A stretch of DNA of 64,000 nucleotides. Origin: Escherichia coli. Lineage in GTDB: Bacteria > Pseudomonadota > Gammaproteobacteria > Enterobacterales > Enterobacteriaceae. Each line of letters begins with the position of its first letter. Position 1 is the first letter of the stretch. Positions 37,801 through 40,207 of this stretch are shown here, one piece after another. The position numbers were made by a program. The DNA lies in assembly GCF_041886205.1 (NCBI RefSeq), contig NZ_CP169029.1. One strand, written 5' to 3'.

Positions 37801-40207
37801 CAAAAATGGGCCACGCATAAAAGGTAATTATTGATATCAAAGGCCCATGGGGATCGGCTGTGGGCCTGTGTTAATTAGTGGTTATTCGCTGCCAGATCGG
37901 CTTCGCTTAGCTGGGTGGCCGCGAGCACCAGGTCACGATCAATGCCTTGTTCCAGCATGCGCAAAGCAATTTTAATGGCTTGTTCACGCATACCTTCCTG
38001 CAAACCTTCTAATTTACCTTCCTGCCAGCCTTCAATCTTACCCTCCTGCCAGCCAATTTGATGTCCTTCCTGCCGTAGCCGTTCAGCAATAGTCATTAAT
38101 CTCTCCTTTTGTAGTGGTGAACGTTCGGCAATCTCCTGAATAAAACGGGTGAAACGGGAGGTATCGCCGCATTGCAGCAGATAATTAAACAGTGTTTGTA
38201 GCTGGCTGTCATTAGTGAAGCCTCTAACCAAAAGCGTGGTGATCCTGTCAACCATACCGATTAAATCGCGGTCGCGAATATGCTTTTGAATCAGTTCCAG
38301 CAGAGCTATACGCCGATGTTGCATGATCTCATCGTCAGGTACGATGGTGATATCCACCAACGGAAAAGCTTCGGTGTACAACTGCCGGGCAAGTTGCGGA
38401 TCGTCAAACTCATCCAGCCAGTTAAGTGAGTATGGGTAGGGCGAGGTTTCGCCATGATAAAACAGCAACGGCACCACCAGCGGGACTCTGTCATAGCCTT
38501 TGTCCAGGTGACGCTGCATGGCGGCAGTGGCATAGCGCATTAGCCGAAAAGCCATATTCTTTTCTGCAGAGCTTTGATGTTCAATCACGCAGTAGATATA
38601 ACCGTCACCGTCGCTGGTTTCCACGGACCACAAAACATCCGAGTAGTAAGCGCGTAAACTTTTTTCAATAAAACTGGTGGGTTCCAGGCGTAAGGTTTGC
38701 AGGTTGCAAAGCTTGCGCAGCGGCTCTGGTAGATGTATTTCGAGAAAATCCCGTGCGGTTTCGGGTGTGAACATAAAGGTTTTAAACACCGCATCATGCG
38801 GGGAGGAGGTTGTTGATTCGGTCATGGTTGTCCGTCACCTGATGTTTATGATGACGCGACATTACGGTTATCCCGGGCCTTTTACATCTGCCAGTTTCAG
38901 CCTTTGCGAGACGTTTTCAGAGGAATTTTCACTGCGTTGCAACGCATACATTGGGCATGGAATCGTGTACGCAAAAATGCCCGGTAACCACATGCTTACC
39001 GGGCATCAGAAGGGAGTTTAAGCCAGCGCCTGGGCCAGCAGCGTAATCGGATGTTCGCAGCGAAGACTTGTCGACATCTCAATCTGCCATTTACAGGTTT
39101 CGCAGTCGGTGACCACCAGATCCGCGCCGCTTTCTTCTATCTGGCGGAACAGTGGCGCACCGATGGCTTGTGAGGTGGGGTAGTTCTCTTTTTTGAAACC
39201 GTAAGTACCCGCAATACCGCAGCACTGGGAATCCAGCACCGTTAACTCAAGCCCCGGGATTTTACGCAACAGCTCCAGGGTGTAGAGCGTCCAGCCCATT
39301 TTTTCCATATGGCACGGAGTGTGATAAACCACTTTCAGCGGCAGCGGTTTCAGCGGTAACGTTTTGCCTTCGTCCAGCTTGCGCCACAGCCAGCGGGTTG
39401 CCAGTTCGATATGATCGCGCAAGCCTTTGTTGTCGACATTCAGCACTTCCGGGTATTCGTCGCGCAGGGCAAATGTACAGGTTGAGGAGGTGGCAATCAC
39501 CGGAATGCCTTTTACTCCCACAGCTTCGCGGATCGACTCTACATTCGTAATTGCCTGTTTGCGTGCTTTATCGGTAAAGCCGTTGGCGATTAGCGGTACG
39601 CCGCAGCATTTTTCTTTGCTGAGCAGTTGTACACCGGTACCCATTGCGTTGAGCACTTTAATTAAATCTTTACCTAACTGCGGATGGTTGTAGTTAACGA
39701 AGCAGCCGTGAAAGAAAGCGACCTGGTCTTTATATTGTGCTTGCTGAGCCGCTATGCTGCGATACCAGCGACGGAACGTGCCGAAGGAGTATTTCGGTAG
39801 CGTGCGGCGATGATCGATTTTTAACGCCGCATCAAGCAGCTGCCGCACCGGTTTCAGCGAGGTAGCGGTGTTGACGATTGGTGCGAACGGCGTGGAAACG
39901 CTACCCATCAGGTCGGTATGACTCAACACAAAATTACGCAGCGACGGGCGCGTGGTGTCATATTTTGCCCGCGCGCGCTGGATAATATCGCCAATCTTCA
40001 CATCGGACGGGCAGGCGACTTCACAACGTTTGCAGTTGATGCAATATTTCAGCGCCTCGTCATACAGTGCGCCATCTTTCAAACGCAGACGCTCGCCATC
40101 CGGCCCGGCTTGTTTTGGCCCTGGATAACCGGGATTCACCCGGCTCACCGGGCAGGCGGTGGTGCAGACGGTGCACTTAATGCAGTTTTCGAAGCTGGTG
40201 TCGTTCA

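Follow-up and report, generated by a model that had tools for sequence, protein, structure and literature searches.

Evidence for a small-protein gene, rpnES, nested in frame within the nuclease-like gene rpnE of Escherichia coli

Described Rpn systems and the identity of the locus

The restraint of Rpn nucleases by small proteins translated from internal starts has been published (Zhong et al. 2023, PMC10400941). Each of the small proteins (RpnS) RpnAS, RpnBS and RpnCS inhibits its cognate full-length protein (RpnL), as seen in toxicity, SOS induction or DNA cleavage; such blocking has been reported for RpnA, RpnB, RpnC and RpnP2 only, and protection from T-even phages was conferred by the plasmid-encoded RpnP2 only (Zhong et al. 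2023, PMC10400941). RpnAS forms a dimer and folds as a three-helix bundle, and the combined substitutions K240R, E241D and M244L in RpnA abolish the small protein (PMC10400941). Levels of RpnS exceed those of RpnL and an internal TSS yields a short transcript, internal TSS having been located by dRNA-seq in all of the rpn genes, as shown in a figure of that study (PMC10400941). For the K-12 allele of rpnE the published findings extend only to synthesis of the small protein, RpnES. Start-site profiling with Onc112 and retapamulin gave an iTIS signal for RpnES in MG1655 (Zhong et al. 2023, PMC10400941), and chromosomal SPA tags allowed the detection of all five small proteins, RpnES among them (PMC10400941). 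The profiling and the western blot of a tagged allele that the original prediction had proposed for the present gene were therefore already in print for the K-12 allele, with RpnES detected. Overexpression of K-12 RpnE caused no toxicity, SOS induction or stimulation of recombination (PMC5350276) and the protein bears the RefSeq name 'inactive recombination-promoting nuclease-like protein'. No RpnE-specific paper was found in the literature after Zhong et al. 2023.

The gene described here lies on the minus strand of a 64,000 nt stretch of E. coli DNA (contig NZ_CP169029.1), referred to as the window (Table 1). It had been labelled rpnB in the original prediction, which proved to be wrong. The neighbouring genes are glpC upstream and yfaU/rhmA downstream, giving the synteny glpABC-gene-yfaU, and the MG1655 gene at the equivalent position is rpnE (b2244); K-12 rpnB (b2305) is placed between yfcH and hisP. 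The window protein scored 718 bits against the RpnE equivalog model NF007418 of NCBIfam (cutoff 583), fell below the cutoff of the NCBIfam RpnA model (424 vs 583 bits) and matched TIGR01784 at 175 bits (cutoff 52, NCBIfam). An identical gene in strain LHM10-1 is annotated as rpnE by PGAP. By the definition of Kingston et al. 2017 (PMC5350276), RpnB is YfcI and RpnE is YfaD. Judged by its locus and by the family models, the gene is rpnE (yfaD), one of five E. coli genes for Rpn/YhgA-like PD-(D/E)XK nucleases.

Table 1. Position and basis of the features of the rpnE locus (window coordinates).
Feature	Position	Strand	Basis
rpnE (yfaD), full-length CDS, encoding RpnE-L, 316 aa	37875..38825	-	ORF listing, NCBIfam, PGAP, synteny
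Transposase_31 / YhgA-like domain, residues 8-209	38199..38804	-	Pfam PF04754, E = 8.2e-88
Candidate internal sigma-70 promoter, ATGACA (38212-38207) N17 TTTAAT (38189-38184)	38184..38212	-	Relaxed scan
Shine-Dalgarno AAGGAG, codons K240-E241, 6 nt upstream of internal ATG	38103..38108	-	Sequence, anti-SD pairing, homologs
Nested in-frame gene rpnES, 73 aa + stop, predicted start M244	37875..38096	-	Sequence, homologs, structure match
Seven 12-nt / 4-aa repeats (xEGx), residues 9-36 of small protein	37989..38072	-	Codon register, TRF
GC-rich hairpin between convergent rpnE and yfaU	37841..37867		Terminator-like site on +, 10 pairs

RpnE-L consists of an N-terminal PD-(D/E)XK nuclease-like domain followed by a variable C-terminal tail. 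Residues D11, D63, E82, Q84 and R94 and the PDDE motif (163-166) are all present in RpnE, with the same residue numbers as in RpnA when the two are aligned; mutation of D11, D63, E82, Q84 or R94 inactivates RpnA (PMC5350276). Pfam gave no match to DUF4351 on the C-terminal tail and nothing significant elsewhere within it; stand-alone RpnS proteins are annotated as DUF4351 in some species (PMC10400941). No second Rpn-like sequence was found within the window by tblastn, and a PDB sequence search with full-length RpnE-L yielded nothing at E ≤ 0.01. NCBIfam matches to FliH (E around 1e-5, far under the cutoffs) were attributed to the charged helical repeat and discarded. PADLOC v2.0.0, which is without an Rpn model, returned as its sole match a weak 'putative invertase' in the C-terminal region (E = 3e-5), and this was also rejected.

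K-12 RpnE/RpnES (b2244) occupies the same glpC-rpnE-yfaU locus, and its N-terminal 259 residues differ from those of the window protein at 3 positions. No difference was seen in the Shine-Dalgarno sequence, the spacer, the ATG or residues 1-19 of the small protein. K-12 encodes a 56-aa nested RpnES together with a separate 61-aa YpaA/RpnESs, whereas the window encodes one 73-aa nested protein with more 4-aa repeats. RpnA/RpnAS (yhgA; PDB 7TH0), the reference case of the family in biochemistry and structure, shares with the window gene the position of the Shine-Dalgarno sequence and of the start codon, the offset of promoter-like hexamers and the catalytic residues, the residue numbers K240, E241 and M244 being common to RpnE, RpnA and RpnB. 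Two differences are that the 49-aa RpnAS of K-12 lacks the additional repeats and that nuclease activity and toxicity have been demonstrated for RpnA, not for RpnE. RpnB (YfcI) is likewise similar in family, in nested-gene design and in AAGGAG-N6-ATG at M244, but lies at yfcH-rpnB-hisP and has a small protein 53% identical to that of the window. Plasmid homologs of the RpnP2 type, approximately 50% identical, retain the internal Met together with a GAGGA core and 4-aa repeats of the form xxGx/xEGx, and some possess a separate small gene downstream; these systems are plasmid-borne, in contrast to the chromosomal rpnE of the window.

The internal initiation site

The minus strand around the internal start reads CAAAAGGAGAGATTAATG, and towards the 3' end of the ORF, including the Shine-Dalgarno sequence and the internal ATG, CAAAAGGAGAGATTAATGACT. 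A near-consensus Shine-Dalgarno sequence 6 nt before an in-frame ATG at 38094-38096 had been predicted and is present: AAGGAG (38108-38103) is separated by the 6-nt spacer AGATTA from the ATG (38096-38094), which is codon 244 of RpnE-L and in frame with it. Translation from this ATG confirmed the predicted 73-aa product, identical to the C-terminal tail of RpnE-L and ending ...ANNH.

The pairing of M244 with the anti-SD of 16S rRNA was calculated as -8.7 kcal/mol, the strongest among the 10 Met codons of the gene (runner-up -4.8), and among the 399 in-frame ATGs internal to the 46 long ORFs of the window no other pairs as strongly. A value of -8.0 kcal/mol was attained by only 3 of the 399, one of which, at 41464, lies in an over-extended ORF and is where glpB really begins. 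A Shine-Dalgarno sequence and ATG by themselves are weak evidence of an internal start. The hexamer could be a by-product of Lys-Glu codons beside an ordinary internal Met, with no separate protein made, as AAGGAG is a natural encoding of K-E and SD-like pairing is common (-5 kcal/mol or better at 55 of these 399 ATGs).

An alignment was made of twelve sequences: the RpnE of the window and that of K-12, K-12 RpnA-D, and six homologs carried on plasmids of Klebsiella, Salmonella, Vibrio, E. coli (IncK) and Leptospira, with approximately 27% identity for the Leptospira homolog. The internal Met is invariant in all twelve, down to approximately 27% identity, within the motif M-T-x-A (MTxA). A GGAG/GAGG core lies 5-9 nt upstream of this Met, again in 12/12, with pairing of -5.9 to -10.8 kcal/mol, while the residues encoded by the Shine-Dalgarno sequence differ among the homologs (KE, RE, GE, GD, ED, EE). 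As the core is kept though the encoded residues vary, the alignment points to selection on the nucleotides and not on the protein. An internal start beyond chance is indicated because both the Met and the core are conserved in homologs. These observations, the rank of the site as the strongest in the window, the detection of RpnES by profiling and tagging in MG1655, where the signals are identical (PMC10400941), and the occurrence in many strains of stand-alone copies of the small ORF with the same Shine-Dalgarno sequence downstream of rpnE all stand against a codon by-product, which is considered highly improbable. The geometry had been described in the original prediction as too good to be incidental. 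That conclusion holds by virtue of the 12/12 conservation; the Shine-Dalgarno sequence and ATG alone would be weak evidence for it.

Between -130 and +48 around the internal start the window and MG1655 disagree at 2 of the 178 nt (-42 and +32), and both differences fall outside the Shine-Dalgarno sequence, the ATG and the candidate promoter hexamers. Because the initiation signals are identical to those of MG1655, expression data published for that strain should transfer to the window allele. A small C-terminal species might alternatively arise by proteolytic cleavage of full-length RpnE, and the control by which the RBS or ATG is knocked out was reported for RpnA and a C. difficile homolog, not for RpnE (PMC10400941). 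Nevertheless, ribosome profiling with initiation inhibitors marks the internal rpnE site, and the excess of RpnS over RpnL and the short transcript from an internal TSS are also contrary to cleavage (PMC10400941). Cleavage would, moreover, leave the nucleotide-level conservation of the Shine-Dalgarno sequence unexplained, and it is judged just as improbable as a codon by-product. Internal initiation is thus the favoured source of the small protein, and RpnES is almost certainly a real, separately translated product.

A strict sigma-70 consensus scan of 37700-39050 found no promoter-like site. With a relaxed scan a candidate was obtained, ATGACA-N17-TTTAAT, spanning -116 to -87 relative to the internal ATG and matching the consensus at 10 of 12 positions, and this candidate fits the published internal TSS. 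The same hexamers recur at this distance in K-12 rpnA and rpnB; rpnD has a near-variant and rpnC lacks them. Because they overlap codons that are themselves conserved (…ND…LFNY…), their retention is not independent proof of a promoter. RNA folding at the internal start gave structure no stronger than in shuffled controls (z = +0.86), and therefore no evidence for a structural switch; the Shine-Dalgarno sequence is unpaired in the centroid fold. Beyond the 3' end of the ORF, the palindrome of the GC-rich hairpin is followed on the minus strand by TTTGATAT. This hairpin is probably a transcription terminator shared by rpnE and yfaU.

The small protein, its repeats and the two forms of the locus

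In a sequence search of the PDB, residues 33-71 of the 73-aa protein were matched by 7TH0, the crystal structure of RpnAS (E = 5.4e-4). An AlphaFold2 model, built on an alignment of 13 sequences, predicted helices at residues 3-49, 54-61 and 65-69 with moderate confidence (pLDDT 73.9), and the top PDB match of this model in Foldseek was again 7TH0 (probability 1.00, target-normalised TM-score 0.76). The predicted small protein therefore matches the three-helix bundle of RpnAS, consistent with homology between the two. Designed-PPR entries ranked top in the PDB search with the 73-aa protein, but their scores added up ten weak repeat matches (i-Evalue >100 in every case), and they were disregarded. 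The gene rpnES is annotated neither by PGAP nor in the curated MG1655 record.

The repeat tract begins at residue 9 of RpnES and is predicted to lie inside the long first helix (3-49 in the AlphaFold2 model). In published RpnL-RpnS systems 4-aa repeats start 8-20 residues past the initiating Met and their number is strain-dependent (PMC10400941); the number of repeats in helix 1 must be equal in RpnL and RpnS for inhibition to occur (PMC10400941). Tandem repeats of about 24 bp had been predicted as a source of length variation. Both the tract and the variation are real, although the step is 12 nt / 4 aa and not 24 nt / 8 aa. Tandem Repeats Finder (TRF) reported a 24-nt period with 2.7 copies and 87% matches at 37991-38054, 24 nt being a double unit. 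Small proteins, nested or stand-alone, from nine E. coli alleles were of 56, 57, 60, 61, 65, 73, 80, 81 and 88 aa, and within each tail type the lengths differ by multiples of 4 aa. Among 5426 complete E. coli genomes, 5409 contain ≥80% of the gene. Few carry the exact 951-nt allele (7 genomes at ≥99% identity).

The locus was found in two forms. In the two-gene form, which includes MG1655, rpnE ends ...TDADIPNCH and a separate small gene follows 12 nt further on, with its own copy of AAAGGAGAGATT(A/G)ATG and a tail of the ypaA type. In the single-gene form, to which the window belongs, the nested protein itself bears the ypaA/rpnESs-type tail and there is no small gene downstream; matched spans of this form in E. 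coli genomes were 951, 927, 915 and 903 nt. The junction of the two-gene form was present at ≥80% coverage in 3134 of 5426 genomes, and therefore the single-gene form accounts for roughly 40%. From the Shine-Dalgarno sequence to the 3' flank the window is 96.7% identical, ungapped over 330 nt, to the stand-alone copy of strain 21AR0173, whereas identity to the nested tail is only approximately 85%. A second RpnES copy, encoded on its own downstream of rpnE, is known as ypaA (rpnESs), and such copies can disappear through deletion or through fusion with the N-terminal domain (PMC10400941). The single-gene form looks like a deletion or fusion that arose by recombination between two direct copies; in the alternative direction, a duplication would have been followed by divergence. 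The nested RpnES, the variation in 4-aa repeats and the ypaA-type duplicate and its fusion are all already known from Zhong et al. 2023 (PMC10400941).

Function of the RpnE pair

The prediction of a nested, antitoxin-like gene is upheld as to the nested small-protein gene, on the strength of the MG1655 experiments, the 12/12 conservation and the match to 7TH0; the term 'antitoxin' is a designation by homology only. A gene-within-a-gene may be envisaged in which full-length rpnE mRNA would be translated into the 316-aa RpnE-L, while ribosomes would also initiate at AAGGAG-N6-ATG at codon 244 to give the 73-aa RpnES, probably mostly on a shorter and more abundant transcript from an internal promoter. 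By homology with RpnA/RpnAS, RpnES would be a three-helix bundle with the 4-aa repeats on its long first helix, and through this helix it would dimerise with the identical segment of RpnE-L, holding the nuclease inactive. A trigger, possibly phage infection, would free RpnE-L from RpnES. Gain or loss of a 12-nt repeat would alter toxin and antitoxin together and keep both matched, because RpnE-L and RpnES are read from the same DNA. Within this account we infer that the candidate promoter is used, that RpnES binds RpnE-L and acts as an antitoxin, that RpnE-L is toxic and that the pair has any part in phage defence. Worded in this way, with RpnE-L and RpnES as the two products and the inferred steps marked as such, the explanation is considered very probable. 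That RpnES acts as an antitoxin for an active RpnE-L is itself reasonably likely.

RpnES may also be made from a pair that has decayed or become domesticated, RpnE-L being inactive and RpnES either a relic or the holder of another role, for instance as a small helix-turn-helix-like regulator. RpnE is the sole paralog of the five that was inactive in all three in vivo assays (PMC5350276), it is 'inactive' in its curated K-12 name, and toxicity or defence data for RpnE were not found in the literature. On the other side, the residues whose mutation inactivates RpnA, together with the PDDE motif, are intact in RpnE, and the presence of at least 80% of the gene in 5409 of 5426 genomes with continuing repeat variation suggests ongoing selection. 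In addition, the constructs of 2017 unknowingly co-expressed RpnES in strains that carried chromosomal ypaA/rpnESs, such that toxicity could have been masked; masking of this kind was argued by the authors of the 2023 study for RpnA and RpnB (PMC10400941). A decayed pair is accordingly regarded as somewhat unlikely, and an active, restrained RpnE-L is preferred.

A more far-reaching proposal is that the rpnE of the window is a recombinant in which the nuclease domain has been joined to a C-terminal part that is of the ypaA/rpnESs type and has additional repeats. Recombination between nested and stand-alone copies would then regularly swap the specificity helix of the toxin, the 'inactivity' of the K-12 protein would reflect masking by two antitoxin copies, and single-copy alleles such as that of the window could be active and differently tuned defence nucleases. 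This proposal is speculative and is advanced tentatively, as one that is rather doubtful in its entirety.

Standard annotation misses genes within genes, and the one described here was detectable from sequence alone by a reader without tools. Little is added biologically to the published account of the Rpn family.

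Organisation of the glpC-rpnE-yfaU locus

Two architectures were found at the glpC-rpnE-yfaU locus. In the two-gene form, rpnE is followed by the stand-alone small gene ypaA/rpnESs, which begins 12 nt past the rpnE stop codon and has its own copy of the Shine-Dalgarno sequence and ATG. Of 5426 E. coli genomes, 3134 contain the junction of this form. The single-gene form, to which the window belongs, possesses one rpnE with a ypaA-type tail, and the window rpnE looks like a fusion of the nested and stand-alone copies.

A single rpnE of 300 amino acids with a ypaA-type tail was also observed in an assembly labelled DH5alpha (NZ_CM135829.1), whereas MG1655 carries both rpnE and ypaA. 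A truncated aldolase gene directly follows rpnE in the former, succeeded by yfaY, and yfaV-yfaX appear to be absent. The mismatch reflects either deletion or recombination at the rpnE locus, or else a doubtful strain label.

Coordinates of the features described at the rpnE locus, elsewhere in the window and on plasmids
Feature	Locus	Position	Strand
Small-gene region	window	37875-38096	-
Small-gene region	L003	2413-2646	
Small-gene region	L005	2485-2706	
Small-gene region	L007	2497-2754	
Small-gene region	L008/L009	about 2401-2598	
Small-gene region	L020 (MG1655)	2317-2502	
Region with single rpnE and truncated aldolase gene	L002 (DH5alpha label)	3001-4405	
Small ORF behind plasmid Rpn homologue	L011	1583-1810	
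Small ORFs behind plasmid Rpn homologues	L013 and L014	1497/1473-1742/1718	
Small ORF behind plasmid Rpn homologue	L015	1539-1781	
Promoter-like pair	window	38184-38212	-
Hairpin	window	37841-37867	
Mechanical glpB ORF	window	40205-41692	-
nuoG RNA motif	window	69-111	+

Candidate promoter and terminator

In rpnE, a promoter-like pair, ATGACA-N17-TTTAAT, precedes the internal ATG by 116 to 87 nt. The pair recurs at an identical offset in rpnA and rpnB and as a near-variant in rpnD; no similar pair was found upstream of the internal ATG of rpnC. The pair may correspond to the internal promoter that published dRNA-seq data imply, but it overlaps conserved codons. Between the stop codons of the convergent rpnE and yfaU, a GC-rich hairpin of 10 bp, kept in both architectures, is probably a bidirectional terminator.

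Other features of the window

The mechanical 495-aa ORF over-extends glpB. An ATG at 41464 within it, with GGAGAAGGAG just upstream, yields 419 amino acids, the GlpB length annotated in strain LHM10-1, and is therefore the true glpB start; it was accordingly discounted as an internal start site. The sole Rfam match in the window was the nuoG RNA motif, RF01748, which scored 50.3 bits (gathering score, 33), and no tRNA genes were found within the 64 kb.

Annotation of small rpn genes

Immediately after each of the Rpn homologues on Salmonella, E. coli IncK and Leptospira plasmids is a small same-strand ORF of approximately 75-81 amino acids, one of them annotated as 'Rpn family'. Such ORFs are possible stand-alone copies of RpnS. 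On several plasmids from Klebsiella, Salmonella and Citrobacter, the 3' end is overlapped instead by a DUF2913 gene in convergent orientation.

PGAP labels for the downstream small copies vary between 'hypothetical protein', partial pseudogene and 'Rpn/YhgA-type helix-turn-helix domain-containing protein'. The curated MG1655 record (NC_000913.3 2356904-2358001) is without a nested rpnES CDS, names RpnE 'inactive' and flags ypaA as a pseudogene. Contrary to this annotation, tagged RpnES and YpaA/RpnESs proteins were detected by Zhong et al. 2023 (PMC10400941).
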